In this document: positions 29,478 through 57,348 of the stretch, piece after piece
Numbering within the stretch: the first letter of the stretch is position 1
Layout: each line of letters starts with the position of its first letter
DNA from: Brevinematales bacterium
GTDB lineage: Bacteria; Spirochaetota; Brevinematia; Brevinematales; GWF1-51-8
Length of the DNA stretch: 64,000 bases
NCBI GenBank assembly: GCA_020059465.1
Contig: JAGVBZ010000030.1
Span: forward strand, 199,976-263,975
Direction of reading: 5' to 3'
Position numbers and translations under genes: made by a program
The notes under the pieces: model-generated
Seen by the model: the letters and a program-made list of their open reading frames with translations, nothing else
What the model was told of the DNA's origin: nothing
Databases searched by the model: none

Positions 29478-31467
<1,990 letters not shown>

Positions 31468-31566: not shown

Positions 31567-31632
31567 CCGCCTCCGAAAGGACTATCCGCAAGGGGGCCTG
31601 CCCTCGAAGGGTAATCCTTCGGGGGCGGTTTT
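31567..31632 (+). terminator. terminator hairpin after the vWA gene (left copy of a duplicated hairpin)
   Basis: ccgcctccg ... atccttcgggggcgg followed by tttt. Homologous to 33005-33044 but with an extra ~30 nt in the loop. Confidence 0.6.
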
Positions 31633-33660: not shown

Positions 33661-33843
33661 TTATTCCTCGATGATCGCCTCGGTTGGGCATTGTTCGGCC
33701 GCTTCATGCGCAAGAGTGCTGTCGTAATCCGTCAAGCCCGTGACATGCGCCTTTCCGTCGTCCTCCATTCTGAATAAGTCCGGGTACAGCCCCTCGCATA
33801 CCCCGCATCCGATGCACGCATCTTCGTCAATTCTTACCGCCAT
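33661..33843 (-). CDS. small single-cluster ferredoxin (60 aa)
   Basis: MAVRIDEDACIGCGVCEGLYPDLF...AAEQCPTEAIIEE: CxxCxxC ... CP arrangement of 3Fe/4Fe mono-cluster ferredoxins. GGAGG RBS (rc of 33849-33853). Confidence 0.8.
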   Translation of the reverse strand: MAVRIDEDACIGCGVCEGLYPDLFRMEDDGKAHVTGLTDYDSTLAHEAAEQCPTEAIIEE

Positions 33844-44690: not shown

Positions 44691-45416
44691 CTACATCCCC
44701 CCGGCGGTTTCGGTCAGCCCGTCGAGCGTGAACGATGCGTCCGATAACGGATACTCGCCGATCTCGTCGATACCCCATGCCCCGGTGATCCCGTCGATTG
44801 CCGATGCCGCGAGAAGCCATCCGTTCTCAGGATGTGCGAGGAACCGCATCATCACGAGGGTTTTCGCGAGGCCGGACGTATTCTTATCCAACCCGTCCGT
44901 CAGGATTTTAAATTCCGGTAGGCCGCAGAAATAAAGATGTAGGTATTTCGCTTCGCCGGTCTTCTTGACGTCGATCACGCTAAATTCTTTACAGGCATAT
45001 CCGCCGATCGTCGTTTGACTGACTACATACTGCATCGTCAGATTCTTAAGAATATCCGACTGAGCGGCTTTCTGCTTGGCGAGCAGGTCGAGATAGCCCT
45101 GCAGCCCCTTGAACGGGAATTCGCGGTCGATCAGGAACGCGGTGACGTCGTTGTAGGTCTTGCTCTTCTCATCGACATCGACCATCCTATCGCCGATGAC
45201 TAGAGTATATTTCCCGGGGCGGTCGGAATAGACCATCTTCAGCTTATCGTGATAGATATAATACTTCACTATTATCGACGGTTCAGATTCGCGGACGGTA
45301 TACTGGATATAGTATCCGGGGTCGGCCAGCGAGCCGGGTTTCACGGAAACCCCTCCGCATGAAACGACTGCCGCCGCGATAAAAAAGAAAAGAACTGATA
45401 ATATAAATTTCTTCAT
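44691..45416 (-). CDS. lipoprotein, unknown function
   Basis: 241 aa. Lipobox AAVVSCGG. Beta-rich. Confidence 0.6.
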   Translation of the reverse strand: MKKFILSVLFFFIAAAVVSCGGVSVKPGSLADPGYYIQYTVRESEPSIIVKYYIYHDKLKMVYSDRPGKYTLVIGDRMVDVDEKSKTYNDVTAFLIDREFPFKGLQGYLDLLAKQKAAQSDILKNLTMQYVVSQTTIGGYACKEFSVIDVKKTGEAKYLHLYFCGLPEFKILTDGLDKNTSGLAKTLVMMRFLAHPENGWLLAASAIDGITGAWGIDEIGEYPLSDASFTLDGLTETAGGM

Positions 45417-45478: not shown

Positions 45479-46225
45479 TTATTTGCCGACAGGTAGTTCC
45501 TTCATTCCGTCGAGCGAAAACATTGAGGGATCGATCATCGTCTCTTCTACCGCGATAATTACAAACTTCGATCCTTTGAAACTCGGTTTATACAAGGGGT
45601 TTTCTCGCGACGGTTCCTCGATATTTTCATACTTCATCAATATCCCGAACTTTGGATGTTCGAAAAATATAGATTTTATCATCGTATTCGCGAAATACTC
45701 CGTGGAGGAATAAATATCTGCAAGCATTTCCTTTAATCGGGGGTCTTGCGAGAAATAGAACTGCATATATGAACCGTCGGACGCTTTCCCGACATACAAG
45801 TCGCATTTGAATCCCGCGGCGGTCACTTTTTTCCCGACCGACTTCGGGTCCATCTTTTCTATCAATTTCATTTTCAAATTATAGATGTTTTGCAGGTATT
45901 GCTTATCGCCGCCTGCCTTGTTGATGGGATGGTAATCCGTGATATCGTAATAAGATTGCGGGGGTATTACATGGAAGCACTTTTTCTCTTGGTATATTTT
46001 ATACGGTTCGTTTTTCATAGGCGACCCGTTTCCCATATAGAACATCTCATACATCCGGTCGCATGTAACAAAATAATTAAAATTATGCCATGTATTCGCG
46101 CCGTAGTATTTAACATACCCGCCGGAATACGTCCCGTATTTGATATGATATCCTTTTACTGTCTCGGCAAGCAGTTGCAGATTGATACCTATAATAAGAA
46201 ATAGCGCCCCAAAAACCGGCCTCAT
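45479..46225 (-). CDS. secreted protein, unknown function
   Basis: 248 aa with signal peptide MRPVFGALFLIIGINLQLLA. Loosely similar in organisation to 44691..45416 (YFC/YFS...P..K motif region). Confidence 0.55.
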   Translation of the reverse strand: MRPVFGALFLIIGINLQLLAETVKGYHIKYGTYSGGYVKYYGANTWHNFNYFVTCDRMYEMFYMGNGSPMKNEPYKIYQEKKCFHVIPPQSYYDITDYHPINKAGGDKQYLQNIYNLKMKLIEKMDPKSVGKKVTAAGFKCDLYVGKASDGSYMQFYFSQDPRLKEMLADIYSSTEYFANTMIKSIFFEHPKFGILMKYENIEEPSRENPLYKPSFKGSKFVIIAVEETMIDPSMFSLDGMKELPVGK

Positions 46226-46285
46226 CTATCCTCCGGTAAGGTATGCACTGATTTGAAGGCCTGCCCCAATTTCTTGTGCTCTCTA

Positions 46286-46936
46286 CGCCGTCTTCGCCTC
46301 TTCGGCGCCTTCCTTCAGTATCTCTAATATCTTGTTCGTGACATCGGTTCCGTATGGGGGCTTGCCCTCGGCGCTTTTTACGCCGTCTTCGCCTCTTCGG
46401 CGCCTTCCTTCAGTATCTCTAATATCTTGTTCGCTGCATCCGTTCCGTATGGGGGCTTGCCCTCGGCGGTATTTACGCCGTCTTCGCCTCTTCGGCGCCT
46501 TCTTTCAGTATATCCAGTATCTTGTTCGCTACATCCGTTCCGCAAAGGGGGCTTGCCCTCGGCGGTATTTACGCCGTCTTCGCCTCTTCGGCGCCTTCTT
46601 TCAGTATCTCAAATATCTTGTTCGCCACATCGGTTCCGCAAGGGGGCACGCCCTCGGCGGTATTTACGCCGTCTTCGCCTCTTCGGCGCCTTCTTTCAGT
46701 ATCTCTAATATCTTGTTCGTGACATCCGTTCCGTATGGGGGCTTGCCCTCGGCGGTATTTACGCCGTCTTCGCCTCTTCGGCGCCTTCCTTCAGTATCTC
46801 TAATATCTTGTTCGCGACATCCGTACCGCAAAGGGGGCTTGCCCTCGGCGGTGTTTACGCCGTCTTCGCCTCTTCGGCGCCTTCTTTCAGTATCTCTAAT
46901 ATCTTGTTCGTGACATCGGTTCCGCCGGGGGTGCAC
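46286..46936 (-). repeat. 7 x 95/96-bp tandem repeat: 3' end of rnfB (tail + stop + spacer) plus six downstream copies
   Basis: Unit starts (plus strand, cgccgtcttcgcc...) at 46286, 46381, 46476, 46572, 46667, 46762 and 46858, giving periods 95, 95, 96, 95, 95, 96. The last unit is the genuine rnfB 3' end. See findings. Confidence 0.95.
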
Positions 46937-47151
46937 TTCGAGTGCGATATTTTATCCTCGACTATCGCGTCGGCATAACCTGCGCACCCGGGGTATCCGC
47001 ACGCTCCGCAGTTATAGCCCGGCAATACATGCTGAATTTTCTCGATCCGGGGGTCGAGCTGGACATGGAATACCTTTGCGAAAATCGCGATCATGATTCC
47101 CAGGAATACGCTCAATACGAGCATGAATAACGCGGAGTATAGTATTGTCAT
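46855..47151 (-). CDS. rnfB: RnfB, truncated form (TM + N-terminal Fe-S domain only, 98 aa)
   Basis: TM (ILYSALFMLVLSVFLGIMIAIFA) plus LPGYNCGACGYPGCAGYADAI...KCTPGG matches the RnfB N-terminal cluster domain. No CxxCxxCxxxCP ferredoxin domains follow. The stop TAA at 46857-46855 lies inside the repeat array. Confidence 0.8.
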   Translation of the reverse strand: MTILYSALFMLVLSVFLGIMIAIFAKVFHVQLDPRIEKIQHVLPGYNCGACGYPGCAGYADAIVEDKISHSKCTPGGTDVTNKILEILKEGAEEAKTA

Positions 47152-47161
47152 TTTCGCCCCC

Positions 47162-47749
47162 TTAGCCTAATTTCACTATGCCGAGGAACCCGAACATCGC
47201 AAGCGACATCAGCCCAGCGGTGATAAACGCTATCGGAAGGTCTTTGAACGCCTTCGGCACTTCCGCCGTATCGAGCCGTTCCCGAACACCGGACATCATC
47301 ACGAGCGCAAGCGTAAAGCCGATACCCGCCGCGAACGCGAACACGAGGCTTTCAAGGTAATCGAAGTTCTTCTGGAGAACCAAGAACGCCGATCCGAGAA
47401 TCGCGCAGTTTGTGGTAATGAGCGGGAGATAGATGCCCAGCGCCTTATACAGGCCCTTGCTCAGCTTTTTCAGCACGATCTCCACCAGCTGGACGAACGC
47501 CGCGATCACGAGGATAAACACGCTGATCTGCAGGAACTTGTCCAGTCCGAGTGGCACAAGGATATATAAATTGATCGGGTAGATAATCATAATCGACATG
47601 ACCAGCACGAATGTCACCGCGAAACCCATCCCGATCGCGGAATCCATTTTCTTCGATACACCGAAGAACGGGCAAAGCCCGAGGAACTGCGAGAGGATGA
47701 AGTTATTGACGAAAATAGCGCTGATGATAATGACAAAAAGTTCGTTCAT
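47162..47749 (-). CDS. rnfA: Rnf complex subunit A
   Basis: 195 aa, six TM. FVNNFILSQFLGLCPFFGVSKK is the RnfA/NqrE signature. Confidence 0.92.
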   Translation of the reverse strand: MNELFVIIISAIFVNNFILSQFLGLCPFFGVSKKMDSAIGMGFAVTFVLVMSIMIIYPINLYILVPLGLDKFLQISVFILVIAAFVQLVEIVLKKLSKGLYKALGIYLPLITTNCAILGSAFLVLQKNFDYLESLVFAFAAGIGFTLALVMMSGVRERLDTAEVPKAFKDLPIAFITAGLMSLAMFGFLGIVKLG

Positions 47750-47759
47750 TTACCGCCTC

Positions 47760-48509
47760 CTACGCCGCTTTATTCGCGGTTTTCGCCGCGGCGGCCATTT
47801 TTTTCAACGCTTTTTCACGCTCTTCTTTTTTATTCTTACGGTACTTGATTACCGCGAGCATCAGTCCCATCAGGAGAAATCCGCCCGGAGGCATAATCAT
47901 CACCATAGCGGGGGATGTCAGCACCTGCGCGACATTGATTACCGACGGGTCGCCCAGCACGGGCGCGCCGAAGTTGTAAATATTTCCCATTCCGGCAAAC
48001 TTCAGTGTAATAGTCGCGCTCCCGACCAACTCACGGATCAGCCCGATGATAAACAGCGCGAGGGTAAATCCGACGCCCATCCCAAGCCCGTCAAGCGCCG
48101 ATTTCCCGACCGTGTTCTTATTCGCGAACGCTTCCGCGCGGCCGAGGATGATACAGTTCACCACGATCAGGGGAATAAAGATACCGAGCGATTTATTGAT
48201 ATCCGGGGTAAACGCCTGCATGACGAGCGAAATCAGTGTCACGAACGACGCGATCACCACGATATAGCTCGGAATACGTACAGCGTCGGGGATAAAATTC
48301 CGCAGGAGAGAAATAATGATATTCGAACAGACCAGCACGAATATCACCGATACGCCCATGGCAAGCCCGTTAATCGTCTGAGTGGTCACAGCAAGAGTCG
48401 GACATAAACCGAGCACCACAACGAATATGGGGTTTTCCCGGAAAATACCCTTGACAAACTCATACCATCCGCTCGTCTTGGGAATATTAGGAATTTTATC
48501 AGCGCTCAT
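47760..48509 (-). CDS. rnfE: Rnf complex subunit E
   Basis: 249 aa. NPIFVVVLGLCPTLAVT (RnfE/NqrD signature), with a K/A-rich C-terminal tail. Confidence 0.9.
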   Translation of the reverse strand: MSADKIPNIPKTSGWYEFVKGIFRENPIFVVVLGLCPTLAVTTQTINGLAMGVSVIFVLVCSNIIISLLRNFIPDAVRIPSYIVVIASFVTLISLVMQAFTPDINKSLGIFIPLIVVNCIILGRAEAFANKNTVGKSALDGLGMGVGFTLALFIIGLIRELVGSATITLKFAGMGNIYNFGAPVLGDPSVINVAQVLTSPAMVMIMPPGGFLLMGLMLAVIKYRKNKKEEREKALKKMAAAAKTANKAA

Positions 48510-49102
48510 TTAGTGCCTCCCTTTTGCGTGTTCGTGTTCGTCATCGCCCCCGGTATTCCGACCGGAGCCACAGCCTTGAGCTGTTCGAACGCGAGCTTGA
48601 GATTGTCCGCGACAGCCATCGAGGTGATGGTCGCGCCGGTGATGATATCCAGCCCGTACTTGCTGAAATCCGCCTTCGAGCCGGGGACTTTATCCGCTGT
48701 CAGGTTCGTGAACTGGGACTGCCACGCCTTCTCGGTACATTTATTCCCCAATCCGGGGGTTTCCGACGCGGCGCTGAGGACAAAGACACTATTGATCGAA
48801 CGGTCCGGCTTGACCCCGACAAGAGTGACCACAGGGCCGCCGTACCCGATTTTCGCTTTCTTAAACACATATCCCGCGATATTCTTCTGCGAGTCGTACC
48901 CGATATAGTACGGCTCCCCGGTATTCGTGATTTTCTCGAACACCGCCGCCTGCGGAAGTACCGCTGTCAGCGCGTCGTTCTCTTCTTTCTGTATCGTTTC
49001 GTCGATCTTCTTTTCGAGAAGCTGATAGGTCATACCGAGCGCCGCGCCGAAAAACACGGCTATGATAACTAAGGGATAAATCGTCTTGATTAAGTTTTTC
49101 AT
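48506..49102 (-). CDS. rnfG: Rnf complex subunit G (FMN-binding)
   Basis: 198 aa. N-terminal TM, GYGGPV, ETPGLG, ITGATITS (flavinylation Thr motif). Confidence 0.9.
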   Translation of the reverse strand: MKNLIKTIYPLVIIAVFFGAALGMTYQLLEKKIDETIQKEENDALTAVLPQAAVFEKITNTGEPYYIGYDSQKNIAGYVFKKAKIGYGGPVVTLVGVKPDRSINSVFVLSAASETPGLGNKCTEKAWQSQFTNLTADKVPGSKADFSKYGLDIITGATITSMAVADNLKLAFEQLKAVAPVGIPGAMTNTNTQKGGTK

Positions 49103-50307
49103 TTAGCGCCTCCCTTCATCAGAATAGCGGCTTTGCCTTTGCCGTAGATTTTAGGCTTCAGGTAACGGTCGAAGATCGGCACGAAGAAGTTCATGAATAC
49201 GATGGAGTAGCTCACTCCCTCGGGATACCCGCCCCACAACCGGATAATAACGGTCAGGGTGCCGAGCAGGATACCGTAGATAAGCGTTCCCTTGATAGAC
49301 ATCGGCGATGTCACATAGTCGGTCGCCATAAAGAACGCGCCTAGGAACAATCCGCCGGACAGGATATGGTACAGCGCGTCTCCCGCGAACCATCCCAATC
49401 CCATCGGGAGTCCCCCGAATATCCACACGAGAAGCGCGGCGGAACCGATATAGACAATCGGGAGAATGGGGATCAGCACCTTTCGCCACATCAGGTAGAT
49501 CGCGCCGAGCAGAATCGCCAGCGCGGAGGTTTCCCCGATACAACCGGGCACATTACCGATAAACAAGTCCCAATAACTGTACGCCATCGCCGGCGCGACA
49601 TGGGACGCGTGGCTGACCGCCTCGACCGCGTTCGTCGCCTTCGACATCGTCTCGTACATCGATTTCAGGCTTCCCAGCGGGGACGCCCCGGTGATCATAT
49701 CCACCTTCACCTGATTGGTGAGTATATTTGTCTGGATTGTATTGGAAATCTGCGATATCTGCGAATAGACCTGATTGGTGACATAAGGCACCTTTTCGAT
49801 TATCACGTCGCTCGCCTGCATAAAACTCAGGCCCTTGCTCATCATAGTGGGAACCGTGGGCGACCAGACGTTGACCATCGCGCCCGACCACGCGGCGAGA
49901 ACGAAAATACGTCCGCCGAGCGCGGGGTTCATGATATTATGCCCGAGGCCGCCGAACGCCCATTTCACGATAGCGATGGCGAACATACTCCCGAACACGG
50001 TGACATACCACGGCGAGGACGGGGGGAGGTTGAACGCGAAGAGGATGCCTGTGATGACCGCGCTCCCGTCGGCGATGGATATCGGCCGTTTCAGTATAAG
50101 ATTCATGATAAGTTCCGTGATAACTGCCGTCCCGACGCTCATGCCGATAATCACCGCGGCGTTATAGCCGAAGAAATAAATCGCGGCGGCGGTCGCCGGT
50201 ATCAGCGCGATGACCACGTCCCACATGATGCGGTGCAGTGTCAGCGGCGCGTGAATATGCGGCGAAAAAGGCGCTGTTGCCGCCTTTCCTCCTTTAGCCT
50301 TAGCCAT
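49099..50307 (-). CDS. rnfD: Rnf complex subunit D
   Basis: 402 aa polytopic protein of the RnfD/NqrB type (SPHIHAP..., GLGHNIMNPAL, ITGASPLG). GGAGGG RBS. Confidence 0.9.
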   Translation of the reverse strand: MAKAKGGKAATAPFSPHIHAPLTLHRIMWDVVIALIPATAAAIYFFGYNAAVIIGMSVGTAVITELIMNLILKRPISIADGSAVITGILFAFNLPPSSPWYVTVFGSMFAIAIVKWAFGGLGHNIMNPALGGRIFVLAAWSGAMVNVWSPTVPTMMSKGLSFMQASDVIIEKVPYVTNQVYSQISQISNTIQTNILTNQVKVDMITGASPLGSLKSMYETMSKATNAVEAVSHASHVAPAMAYSYWDLFIGNVPGCIGETSALAILLGAIYLMWRKVLIPILPIVYIGSAALLVWIFGGLPMGLGWFAGDALYHILSGGLFLGAFFMATDYVTSPMSIKGTLIYGILLGTLTVIIRLWGGYPEGVSYSIVFMNFFVPIFDRYLKPKIYGKGKAAILMKGGAK

Positions 50308-50337: not shown

Positions 50338-51666
50338 TTATCCCGCCTGCTTTGCGGCGGCGGCCTGTTTACGTCTCCAGAATCCCTTGCCGAACCGGAA
50401 CATCGCCACAAGCGGAATAGTCGACGGGCACACGAACGAGCACGAGCCGCACTCGATGCAGTCCAGCAGTCCGCGTTCCACCGCCTCTTCCAGCAGACTC
50501 TTATCGACAAGCGTCTTCAGATACCACGGCTCCAGCCCTATCGGGCATACGAACTGACAGCGGGCGCAGCGGATGCACGGGAAATCGTTCACCGCGTAGT
50601 CGCGCTTCTTCGGGAGCACCACGATACCGCTAGTGCCCTTTGTGACAGGGAACTGCATATCGGTCAATTCAAGCCCCATCATAGGCCCGCCCGCGATCAC
50701 AGTACCATGCTCGGCCGGCATGCCGAGCTCGTCGATCAGCGCCTGTACCGGCGAGCCGATACGCACTTTATAGTTGCCGCGTTTCTCGATCTGTTCTCCG
50801 GTGTAGGTCAACCCGCGTTCGATCAGCGGCTTCTGGAATACCACCGCCTCGTAGATCGCGAATATGGTCGCCACATTCTGCACCAGCACCCCTACGTCCG
50901 ACGGAAGCCCGCCCGACGGCACTTCGCGCCCGGTGAGCGCCTGTATCAGTTGTTTTTCCCCGCCCTGGGGATAACGTGTCCTGAGCGCGTAGATTTCGAT
51001 GGAAGAATCACCCTCCGACGCCTTGGATAATGCCTCGATAGCGTCGGGCTTGTTCTCCTCGATACCGATCATGACGCGTTTCACGCCGAGGATTTTCTTG
51101 ATAATATTGACGCCTTCGATAATCGCGTCGGGTTTTTCCAGCATGGTTCTATGGTCGATCGTGAGATACGGTTCGCACTCGGCGCCGTTCACTATGAAAA
51201 TATCCATCGGTTTTTCTTTCGGGGGGGAGAGTTTGACATGGGTGGGGAAAGTCGCGCCGCCCATTCCGACGATGCCGGCGGCCTTGATCATCTCGAGCAG
51301 TTTCTCGGGGGAGGTTTTGGAATAGTCGAACTTCTTGTCGTACCAGTTCCGGATACTCCCGCCGGTCTCGATGATCACATGATCGACTCCCTTCGCGACC
51401 AGCGTATCGCCCTTCTCGACCGCGATTACGGTGCCGGATACGCTCGCGTGGATATTCGCCGATATAAACCCGACCGCTTCGCCGATCAGTTGTCCTTCCT
51501 CGACCTTGTCGCCCGCCTTGACCAATACCTTCGCGGGCGCGCCGATATGCATATTCATCGGGATACGGATCTGTTTCGGCAGGTGCGCGTTCGTGATCGG
51601 CATATCCGCCGTGTATTTGGAATCATGCGGATGAATCCCGCCCTTCTTAAAATACTTTAATTCCAT
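50338..51666 (-). CDS. rnfC: Rnf complex subunit C
   Basis: ATG at 51666 (MELKYFKKGGIHP), 5 nt after GGAGG (rc of 51672-51676). GMGGATFPTH, CIRCARCQFVCP and CIECGSCSFVCP. Confidence 0.92.
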   Translation of the reverse strand: MELKYFKKGGIHPHDSKYTADMPITNAHLPKQIRIPMNMHIGAPAKVLVKAGDKVEEGQLIGEAVGFISANIHASVSGTVIAVEKGDTLVAKGVDHVIIETGGSIRNWYDKKFDYSKTSPEKLLEMIKAAGIVGMGGATFPTHVKLSPPKEKPMDIFIVNGAECEPYLTIDHRTMLEKPDAIIEGVNIIKKILGVKRVMIGIEENKPDAIEALSKASEGDSSIEIYALRTRYPQGGEKQLIQALTGREVPSGGLPSDVGVLVQNVATIFAIYEAVVFQKPLIERGLTYTGEQIEKRGNYKVRIGSPVQALIDELGMPAEHGTVIAGGPMMGLELTDMQFPVTKGTSGIVVLPKKRDYAVNDFPCIRCARCQFVCPIGLEPWYLKTLVDKSLLEEAVERGLLDCIECGSCSFVCPSTIPLVAMFRFGKGFWRRKQAAAAKQAG

Positions 51667-51790
51667 ATCGGCCTCCAATATTACTAGAAATCCGGTACAG
51701 GTATGCTGATGGTATTTCGGTTACCCGTATATGATATTTTCATTTTAAAGATTAGTCAATTTTTCAAAAGATTGAGATTATGGAAAGGAA

Positions 51791-55673: not shown

Positions 55674-57050
55674 TTACTGATTCGTATACTGCTGGATTAC
55701 AACCGCTGCAGTATCGACCCCCGCGACCGGTGTAACCTGTATCGTCGCCGCACTGTCGATTCCCGCAATATTTGTGGATACCCCGTTTACAGAAGTGTTT
55801 GCCACAGTTAAAGACGCGTTACTCATAAAGGCCGCGCCGGGCAGTTCGCCGTTAGCGTCGAGCTTCAGCACCCAAATATCCGAGAAACTCGCGCTCCATG
55901 AGTAGGAATAGCCCCCGATGATATAACCCCCGTCCGATGTCTGACGCACCGATTGCCCCATATCGTTATTCGTCCCGCCGAATGTATTCTGCCACAGAAT
56001 GTTTCCCAGACCGTCGATTTTCAGCGCGAGAACATCCGCGCCGCCCTTTCCAAAGGAAGCCGTATTCCCCGCGATAATAAACCCTCCGTCCGACGTCTGC
56101 TGAATACTTTTAGCATATTCATCGGCGCTCCCGCCGTATGTCTTCTGCCAATTCGTCGTACCGTTGCTATTCAATTTGAGAAGCCAAATATCGTAGCCGC
56201 TCGCGCCGAAGGAAAGAGTATTGCCCGCGAGGAGATATCCGCCATCTGTGGTCTGCAGGACAGAGTATACGCTATCGGAATCAGCGCCCCCGATTGTATA
56301 CTGCCATTCTGCAATCCCAGTACCGTTAAGTTTTAATATCCATATATCACCGAGGCCCGCGCCCATGGATGCAAATCCGCCAACAATATACCCGCCGTCC
56401 GACGTCTGCTGCACCGTCATAGCGCCGTCTTCAGCACCGCCGCCGTAACTTTTCTGCCAGTTCGTCGTACCGTTTGCATCGAGTTTCAGCACCCAGATAT
56501 CGCCGCCGCCCGCATCGAAAGAATAGGTACTGCCTACGACGATATATCCTCCGTCGGAGGTCTGCTTAACATCCGTCACTTCCTCGAAGGAAGTGCCGCC
56601 GAATGTCTTCTGCCAGCTTGAATTTCCATTCGCGTCCAGTTTCAGTACCCAGATATCGGCACTACCCGCGCCGTAGGAATAGGTATAACCCGCGACAATA
56701 TATCCCCCGTCGGACGTCTGCTGAACAGATTGCCCATAATCATTGTTGCTCCCCCCGAATGTCTTCTGCCAATTGGTGGCACCGTCCGCATCAAGCTTCA
56801 GCAACCAGATATCCGAATTCCCGGCGCCGAACGAATCGGTTTGCCCGGCGATTAGATATCCCCCGTCGGATGTCGGCACTATGTTACCCAAATAATCCGG
56901 ATTAATGCCTCTGTACGATTTCGCCCATTTGACGACAGTTACGCCGGTAGGCGGATTATTATCCGCAGGAGGCCCGCCGCAGCCCGCCAATCCCGTCACT
57001 ATTGCCGTAGAGACGGCAACTACAGAAAATATTCTGTGAAAATGTTTCAT
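55674..57050 (-). CDS. beta-propeller repeat lipoprotein (SDGGYI / WQKTFGG repeats)
   Basis: 458 aa. Lipobox GLAGCGG. About 8 tandem ~48-aa repeats: WQKTFGG..D....V.QTSDGGYI.AG.T.SFGAG..DIW.LKLD.NG. Confidence 0.75.
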   Translation of the reverse strand: MKHFHRIFSVVAVSTAIVTGLAGCGGPPADNNPPTGVTVVKWAKSYRGINPDYLGNIVPTSDGGYLIAGQTDSFGAGNSDIWLLKLDADGATNWQKTFGGSNNDYGQSVQQTSDGGYIVAGYTYSYGAGSADIWVLKLDANGNSSWQKTFGGTSFEEVTDVKQTSDGGYIVVGSTYSFDAGGGDIWVLKLDANGTTNWQKSYGGGAEDGAMTVQQTSDGGYIVGGFASMGAGLGDIWILKLNGTGIAEWQYTIGGADSDSVYSVLQTTDGGYLLAGNTLSFGASGYDIWLLKLNSNGTTNWQKTYGGSADEYAKSIQQTSDGGFIIAGNTASFGKGGADVLALKIDGLGNILWQNTFGGTNNDMGQSVRQTSDGGYIIGGYSYSWSASFSDIWVLKLDANGELPGAAFMSNASLTVANTSVNGVSTNIAGIDSAATIQVTPVAGVDTAAVVIQQYTNQ

Positions 57051-57183: not shown

Positions 57184-57348
57184 GCGCTGTCTTCGACGCA
57201 GACTGACTGCCACTATGCTGGCATTTCTATCGTAATGGGTTTTGCCTGCGCAGCAGCAGCCAATACACCCGCGCTGTCTTCGACGCAGGCTCGCTTCTTA
57301 TATACCTGTCTTTCAAACGTAATGGGTTTAGCCTGCGCAGCAGTTGCG
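57184..57348. repeat. two tandem REP-like units (family 1), each an imperfect palindrome
   Basis: Both units start gcgctgtcttcgacgcagRct and end cgtaatgggtttWgcctgcgcagcag (57184-57269, 57271-57348). The ends are partly self-complementary. The core matches 31468-31490 and 9506-9522. Confidence 0.6.

Follow-up and report, generated by a model that had tools for sequence, protein, structure and literature searches.

The rnf operon on the minus strand of the window (the whole 64-kb stretch of Brevinematales DNA analyzed here) ends with an rnfB gene that encodes a protein of only 98 amino acids, and the question raised by this locus is whether such a gene is complete and, if so, how the complex would receive electrons from ferredoxin. 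In canonical Rnf, ferredoxin docks on the C-terminal polyferredoxin domain of RnfB, and a chain of clusters leads the electrons from there to a terminal mobile cluster, which moves over to RnfA/E and reduces the [2Fe-2S] cluster within the membrane. For the short protein, the original prediction put forward three explanations: a naturally minimal class of RnfB, a complex in which a separate polypeptide serves as the ferredoxin-binding module, and truncation of the gene by the event that created the adjacent repeat array. The evidence presented below indicates that this rnfB is very probably an intact, naturally minimal gene and that soluble ferredoxin most likely reduces the single cluster of its product directly.

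The rnf operon and the short RnfB protein

The operon has the gene order rnfCDGEAB, with rnfB in the last position, and the other five subunits show the ordinary Pfam architectures, as the original prediction had it. The rnfC gene (50338..51678, minus strand, as are all genes of the operon) encodes the NADH/FMN subunit with 2x[4Fe-4S], which matches the RnfC_N, Complex1_51K, SLBB and Fer4 families of Pfam and contains two C..C..C...C motifs; the ORF opens with a TTG codon at 51678, and the likely start is the ATG at 51666, which yields a protein of 442 aa, the same length as RnfC of relatives. The products of rnfD (49099..50307; PF03116, E-value 6.9e-107) and rnfG (48506..49102; PF04205, FMN_bind) contain a TGAS flavinylation-type motif and a TGAT motif, respectively. 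The rnfE (47760..48509; E-value 7e-65) and rnfA (47162..47749; E-value 1.5e-59) genes both encode PF02508 proteins, with the cysteine contexts LGLCP and VNCIILG in RnfE, and LGLCP and TNCAILG in RnfA. The [2Fe-2S] cluster within the membrane is held by these conserved contexts in RnfA and RnfE; the flavinylation motifs belong to RnfG and RnfD.

The minimal rnfB itself occupies positions 46855..47151 (minus strand, stop codon included) and encodes the protein MTILYSALFMLVLSVFLGIMIAIFAKVFHVQLDPRIEKIQHVLPGYNCGACGYPGCAGYADAIVEDKISHSKCTPGGTDVTNKILEILKEGAEEAKTA, which ends with KCTPGGTDVTNKILEILKEGAEEAKTA immediately before the stop codon. This protein is 100% identical to P0001, which bears the JGI name “RnfABCDGE-type electron transport complex B subunit”. 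The sole Pfam domain detected in it is PF04060, “FeS” (residues 43-75, E-value 2.9e-14, 52.9 bits against the cut-off of 23), and a Pfam scan of the 98-aa protein yields no match to Fer4. The RnfB profile of NCBIfam, TIGR01944, is matched above the cut-off (83.2 vs 68.7 bits), with coverage of profile positions 7-91 of 190 only, and the alignment with the E. coli-type RsxB model extends over positions 3-94 of 190. This partial coverage implies that rnfB stops at the start of the canonical ferredoxin half, in agreement with the earlier claim that the gene ends at the canonical linker. None of the NCBIfam equivalog models comes near its cut-off (e.g., 76 vs 203 bits and 81 vs 252 bits), and the C-terminal domain of the canonical class with at least two CxxCxxCxxxCP motifs, as represented in the equivalog models of long RnfB (PRK05113, PRK07118 and rnfB_Methano), is absent.

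In the AlphaFold2 model (mean pLDDT 88), the protein consists of an N-terminal transmembrane anchor helix (residues 2-27, 47071..47148, pLDDT 94-98), the single [4Fe-4S] domain delineated by PF04060 (46927..47025), in which the cysteine loops are flanked by two short helices, and a long final helix (residues 77-97, 46861..46923), the part of the gene that recurs in the array downstream. The single-cluster domain corresponds to FdI of Clostridium tetanomorphum RnfB and to B8 of the Acetobacterium woodii protein. Four cysteines of this domain, C48, C51, C56 and C73 (CxxCxxxxC...C), are invariant across 25 aligned short RnfBs and are the predicted ligands of the single [4Fe-4S] cluster. Thus, the ORF, the Pfam assignment and the structural model agree on the description given in the original prediction, namely a membrane helix and an N-terminal cysteine domain with no ferredoxin domains.

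A profile of the short RnfBs aligns with the N-terminal portions of long RnfBs of known structure, that is, with residues 4-90 of the C. tetanomorphum protein (7ZC6_B), residues 4-94 of the A. woodii protein (9ERI_B) and residues 1-87 of the Azotobacter vinelandii protein (8AHX_B), and the anchor helix aligns with the transmembrane helix of each of these three proteins. A Foldseek search started with the model identifies 9ERI_B as the top match, and the N-terminal [4Fe-4S] domain of the corrinoid iron-sulfur protein is also among the best hits. The latter domain, from the large subunit of CFeSP (4DJD_C, 2YCL_A), shares the PF04060 fold and the cysteine motif with RnfB according to both the profile and Foldseek comparisons; unlike RnfB, it is soluble, belongs to an unrelated enzyme, has no membrane anchor and is not encoded in an rnf context.

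Downstream of the fourth cysteine and its helix, nothing resembling a ferredoxin domain is detectable. A six-frame scan of positions 46101-47000 reveals no C..C..C...C motif, consistent with the earlier statement that no CxxCxxCxxxCP motif follows the gene, and no trace of a lost ferredoxin domain turns up near rnfB in a tblastn search for which the polyferredoxin halves of nine long RnfBs served as queries.

Short RnfB in relatives and in other lineages

A word-indexed homologue search that covered 5.8 billion proteins retrieves 36 RnfB homologues, all of which are 71-137 aa long and contain PF04060 alone; these include a protein with 86% identity from a Brevinematales MAG and one with 74% identity from “Spirochaetes bacterium GWF1_51_8”. 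In the relatives with 48-86% identity, an rnfB of 96-103 aa is the terminal gene of the rnf operon, and the repeats are absent in most of them. Analysis of the genomic contexts of six homologues (86% to about 44% identity) shows that the short rnfB closes an rnfCDGEAB operon in all six, and the 25 aligned short RnfBs end within approximately 10-25 residues of the helix of the last cysteine. Every RnfB sequence recovered from Brevinematales is short; the forms from Treponema, Rectinema and Sediminispirochaeta are 262-285 aa long.

The short form extends well beyond this order. A scan of GTDB with one genome per species (80 loci) yields 13 loci with a complete short rnfB (95-108 aa) devoid of ferredoxin motifs, from Brevinematales, Thermotogota, Erysipelotrichaceae, Acholeplasmatales, Xianfuyuplasma, Onthovivens and other Bacilli, and a scan of JGI metagenomes detects short rnfB at 20 of 80 loci. 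In a crude neighbor-joining tree, in which resolution is weak owing to the short alignment, the Brevinematales proteins form one group and the short forms from Bacillota and Thermotogota are found elsewhere. This scatter, as far as the sequences go, suggests that the polyferredoxin domain was lost independently several times.

Other variants of RnfB and of the operon come to light in these searches. Three proteins of the representative library (P0038, P0039 and P0066, 148-231 aa) contain two tandem PF04060 domains and no Fer4, and in P0037 (391 aa) a pair of PF04060 domains precedes a polyferredoxin, so that the input modules of RnfB appear to be more diverse than the division into short and long forms implies. 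Some operons with short rnfB accommodate additional ORFs, such as a 60-aa ORF between rnfA and rnfB (L006, 7807-7989) and a 232-aa ORF with no Pfam match between rnfD and rnfG (L007, 5548-6246). In GWF1_51_8, a two-gene cassette is located between rnfC and rnfD (L002, 3328-4820; L003, 3027-4519); it encodes an AAA_15/AAA_21 ATPase, for which the best PADLOC matches are HEC-02A, PD-T4-4_A, NsnB, AriA and PtuA, and a 152-aa protein without matches, and resembles a defence-type module.

The distribution of the short gene bears directly on the possibility that the window rnfB is the remnant of a long gene that was recently truncated by the duplication that formed the array. The position of the array, which starts inside the last 23 codons of rnfB, and the fact that the gene ends where canonical proteins go on would fit such an event. 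However, the form of 95-103 aa and its end point are the same in array-free loci (L001, with 86% identity, L004, L005, L008 and L091-L094); the short architecture and its end point are shared by Thermotogota and Bacillota; no ferredoxin-domain relic lies 3' of rnfB; and synteny with the next genes is preserved in relatives. Because relatives that lack the array have an equally short gene that ends at the same point, truncation by the array, one of the explanations offered originally, is refuted and can be regarded as highly improbable; the short RnfB is the norm in this clade, mostly without any array, a situation that the original prediction itself had named as its refutation.

Loss of a downstream ferredoxin domain through an error of assembly or sequencing is even less credible, to the extent of being practically negligible. 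Tandem repeats are indeed prone to misassembly, two JGI assemblies from the same species differ from the window in the number of repeat copies, and one JGI contig ends 187 bp past the rnfB stop codon, within the next gene. These facts make the copy number of the array uncertain, whereas the end of the rnfB gene is certain, given that the identical 98-aa ORF and the same neighboring genes are present in independent assemblies, namely the window and the two JGI ones (L088 and L089), as well as in three other species.

The remaining alternative is a polyferredoxin that was split off and is encoded elsewhere in the genome, serving as the ferredoxin-binding module by docking on RnfC or on the short RnfB. 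Two published observations could be read in its favor. The Rnf preparation from Thermotoga maritima included proteins beyond the six expected ones, and mass spectrometry detected RnfC, RnfD and RnfG only, so that RnfB was missed (PMC7414866); and in A. woodii, RnfC binds to the polyferredoxin portion of RnfB through its C-terminal helix (PMC11889175), which means that a docking surface for a split polyferredoxin could exist. Against this stands the genomic context: none of the six short-rnfB operons examined has a conserved gene for a Fer4-domain partner beside it, and the genes located 3' of these operons vary by lineage and are unrelated to each other, including lipoprotein-like unknowns, SpoIIE phosphatases and a signal peptidase. 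Among ORFs of 40 aa or more in the 64-kb window, the C..C..C...C motif is confined to RnfC and a standalone ferredoxin located 17 kb from rnfB, and membranes of T. maritima oxidized a heterologous ferredoxin (PMC7414866). A separate ferredoxin-binding polypeptide is thus unsupported and, all in all, unlikely.

Comparison with known systems and the proposed electron path

The minimal RnfB of the window is not a new class. In T. maritima, where the operon likewise has the order rnfCDGEAB, RnfB is a protein of 10.56 kDa with one predicted 4Fe-4S center (Kuhns 2020, Commun Biol, PMC7414866); the lengths of RnfB in different organisms are compared in Fig. 9 of the same work, and the authors caution that the true number of one cluster in this protein “remains to be established”. 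Vitt et al. (2022) label the T. maritima-type RnfB “FdI domain only” (PMC9588780). The window protein shares with this type the operon order, the transmembrane helix, the single CxxCxxxxC...C domain and the terminal helix; it has 49% identity (E-value 7e-31) to the 95-aa RnfB of Thermotoga profunda (WP_041083408.1), and belongs with the 95-aa Thermotogae proteins to the same length class, with the same end point after the helix of the fourth cysteine. The differences lie in the phylum, Spirochaetota (Brevinematales), and in the tandem array of the gene tail that follows rnfB in the window. Thus, of the original explanations, the naturally minimal class is the one that is borne out, in Brevinematales, where it is standard, as well as in Thermotogota and Bacillota, and it had already been described in these two publications. 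In a 2025 review, the role of ferredoxin acceptor is still assigned to a C-terminal domain of RnfB with “between two and seven” clusters (PMC12174285), so that this class is under-advertised, even if not new.

Canonical RnfB/RsxB proteins, such as those of E. coli (192 aa), A. vinelandii (8AHX_B), C. tetanomorphum (7ZC6_B, 274 aa) and A. woodii (9ERI_B, 333 aa), are homologous to the window protein over their first 90 or so residues, which comprise the anchor helix and the mobile domain with its single cluster; what the window protein lacks is the canonical C-terminal domain of 2-7 [4Fe-4S] clusters, described in reviews as the ferredoxin acceptor site (PMC12174285). In A. woodii, residues 30-100 of RnfB form the mobile “B8 domain”, and its cluster donates electrons directly to the [2Fe-2S] cluster of RnfA/E (PMC11889175). 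An analogous arrangement is seen in NqrF of the Na+-NQR, where one transmembrane helix and a small mobile Fe-S domain feed the NqrD/E cluster (PMC12174285); unlike RnfB, NqrF is non-homologous and combines a [2Fe-2S] cluster with an FAD/NADH domain.

These comparisons suggest a short route for the electrons in the window organism. With the chain of polyferredoxin clusters absent, the membrane-anchored mobile [4Fe-4S] domain would be all that remains of the input module, and we infer that ferredoxin docks directly on this single-cluster domain. A soluble ferredoxin would then reduce the RnfB cluster, and the path beyond it would be unchanged, from RnfA/E through RnfG, RnfD and RnfC to NAD+. Two standalone ferredoxin genes reported in the original prediction are both real according to Pfam: a clostridial-type 2x[4Fe-4S] ferredoxin of 55 aa (29478..29645, minus strand; two Fer4 domains, E-value 1.5e-16, also recovered by the motif scan) and a single-cluster ferredoxin of 60 aa (33661..33843, minus strand; Fer4_15 and Fer4_13). 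The 55-aa protein is a candidate soluble donor or acceptor for Rnf and might be the one that reduces RnfB. That a complex with a short RnfB can be active with ferredoxin is taken, by analogy, from the work on T. maritima, in which membranes and purified Rnf reduced NAD+ with reduced ferredoxin from Clostridium pasteurianum and transported Na+ (PMC7414866).

A tandem array of the rnfB tail

The 3' end of rnfB is the first unit of a tandem array (46284..46924, minus strand; period 95, 6.7 copies, 91% matches). The array comprises seven copies with spacings of 96, 95, 95, 96, 95 and 95 nt, the first of which is the genuine end of rnfB. Each unit consists of the last 22 codons of rnfB (GTDV[T/A]NKIL[E/D]ILKEGAEEAKTA), the stop codon and a spacer of 26-27 nt with the sequence A[CTA]A[CG]CGCCGAGGGC[AA/GT]GCCCCC... 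Two sister lineages have a comparable array in the same place: GWF1_51_8 (101 bp x 2.6 copies; L002, 8235-8495; L003, 7934-8194), where it is recovered identically in an ENA and a JGI assembly, and the lineage of a metagenome contig that encodes an RnfB with 88% identity (L090; 102 bp x 4 copies, approximately 330-740). The array is absent in the relative with 86% identity and in the more distant Brevinematales examined.

In the window's own species, two JGI metagenome contigs (L088, 3297-3451, and L089, 3297-3484; assemblies 3300007351 and 3300007354) contain 2 copies of the tail compared with 7 in the window, in an arrangement that resembles the head of copy 2 fused to the tail of copy 7; this difference reflects either copy-number variation or assembly collapse. 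The duplication junction and the T-P-G-G codons of the gene have a CCCCC(G)G motif in common, which makes an origin of the array by slippage, followed by unequal crossing-over, plausible.

The copies show signs of constraint at the level of the encoded peptide. Across the three arrays, the 30 variable sites are split 5/3/22 among the first, second and third codon positions in the frame of RnfB (chi-square P of about 2e-5), and the stop codon is retained in 14 of 14 copies, with TAA, TAG and TGA interchanging. In GWF1_51_8, the three copies encode an identical peptide in spite of 10 synonymous differences, and MPPVATEVAAKVLAILKEASEEQAKA is an example of the peptide predicted from the array copies in this lineage. 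In two of the lineages, the spacers vary even less than the tails and are better conserved than the synonymous third positions: in GWF1_51_8, 1 of 38 spacer sites is variable against 11.6% in the tails, and in L090, about 2% against 8.2%, with the tail differences falling mostly in third positions in both cases.

The preservation of the frame and of the stops, the synonymous changes and the conserved spacers fit a reading in which the copies are maintained coding cassettes, either a recombination reservoir for the C-terminal helix of RnfB or a source of translated products, and this reading as a whole is best considered doubtful. In the version with translated products, these would be 26-aa peptides in one lineage, where an in-frame ATG is available, or in-frame read-through modules in another; they would resemble the final helix of the single-cluster domain, with a possible modulating effect on Rnf. 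As a conserved mechanism, independent small genes are not supported: an in-frame ATG is found only in GWF1_51_8 (L002), L090 has no start codon, and in the window the equivalent position is occupied by AAG in five copies and by GTG in one; a Shine-Dalgarno-like GAGGG is located only 1 nt from the putative start; and the unit lengths of 95/96, 101 and 102 nt place the copies in inconsistent frames. The L090 units are in frame, with TAG stops, and the frames in the window are mixed.

Several other roles of the array were considered and rejected. For a structured RNA, there is no match in Rfam, and the folding z-scores of individual units (-1.8, -0.9 and +1.2) are not significant; the z-score of -5 for the whole array arises solely from pairing of the repeats with each other. 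A function in termination is not indicated, as the transcribed strand has no terminator-like site in the interval from rnfB to the gene that follows. A diversity-generating retroelement or a shufflon does not fit the data, given that the differences among copies are synonymous and do not diversify the amino acid sequence, that all copies are in direct orientation, and that the two ORFs immediately downstream of the array have no Pfam match. The GGA motifs of the units, which could suggest a sponge for CsrA, vary between copies and species. Finally, an element dispersed throughout the genome is not indicated either, with only one extra occurrence of the spacer motif in the 64 kb.

The extra occurrence of the spacer motif, CGAGGGCNNGCCCCCTTGCGG, is at 31586-31606 (minus strand), within a long terminator-like hairpin that reads CCGCCCCCGAAGG...CCTTTCGGAGGCGG followed by TTTT on the plus strand and lies downstream of the plus-strand ORF 29560-31467. 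The array is spanned in antisense by an ORF of 193 aa that opens with TTG (46332-46913, plus strand), a consequence of the CT-rich antisense strand, on which all frames of the repeat are free of stop codons; this ORF is probably spurious. Other repeats in the window are units of 181 nt spaced 156-309 nt apart, with 66-73% identity (56076-56877), and a tandem repeat of 87 bp x 1.8 (57184-57343). The two adjacent minus-strand genes downstream of the array (44691-45416 and 45479-46225) encode proteins of 241 and 248 aa, respectively, for which no Pfam match was found; they have hydrophobic, signal peptide-like N-termini and are weak paralogs (21% identity, E-value 1e-7). In the GWF1_51_8 relative, four such genes are arranged in a row.

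Implications

The architecture of the short RnfB, its conservation, its spread throughout the clade and its independence from the repeat array are direct observations. For the biology of Rnf as such, little is gained from the window protein; the array is a modest, separate curiosity. The single-cluster class of RnfB is extended from Thermotogae to Brevinematales and several lineages of Bacillota. The polyferredoxin “antenna” would thus be dispensable in many lineages, which is relevant with regard to recent reviews that place the docking of ferredoxin on 2-7 extra clusters. For genome annotation, the implication is that shortness alone is no reason to mark an rnfB gene as a fragment or a pseudogene.
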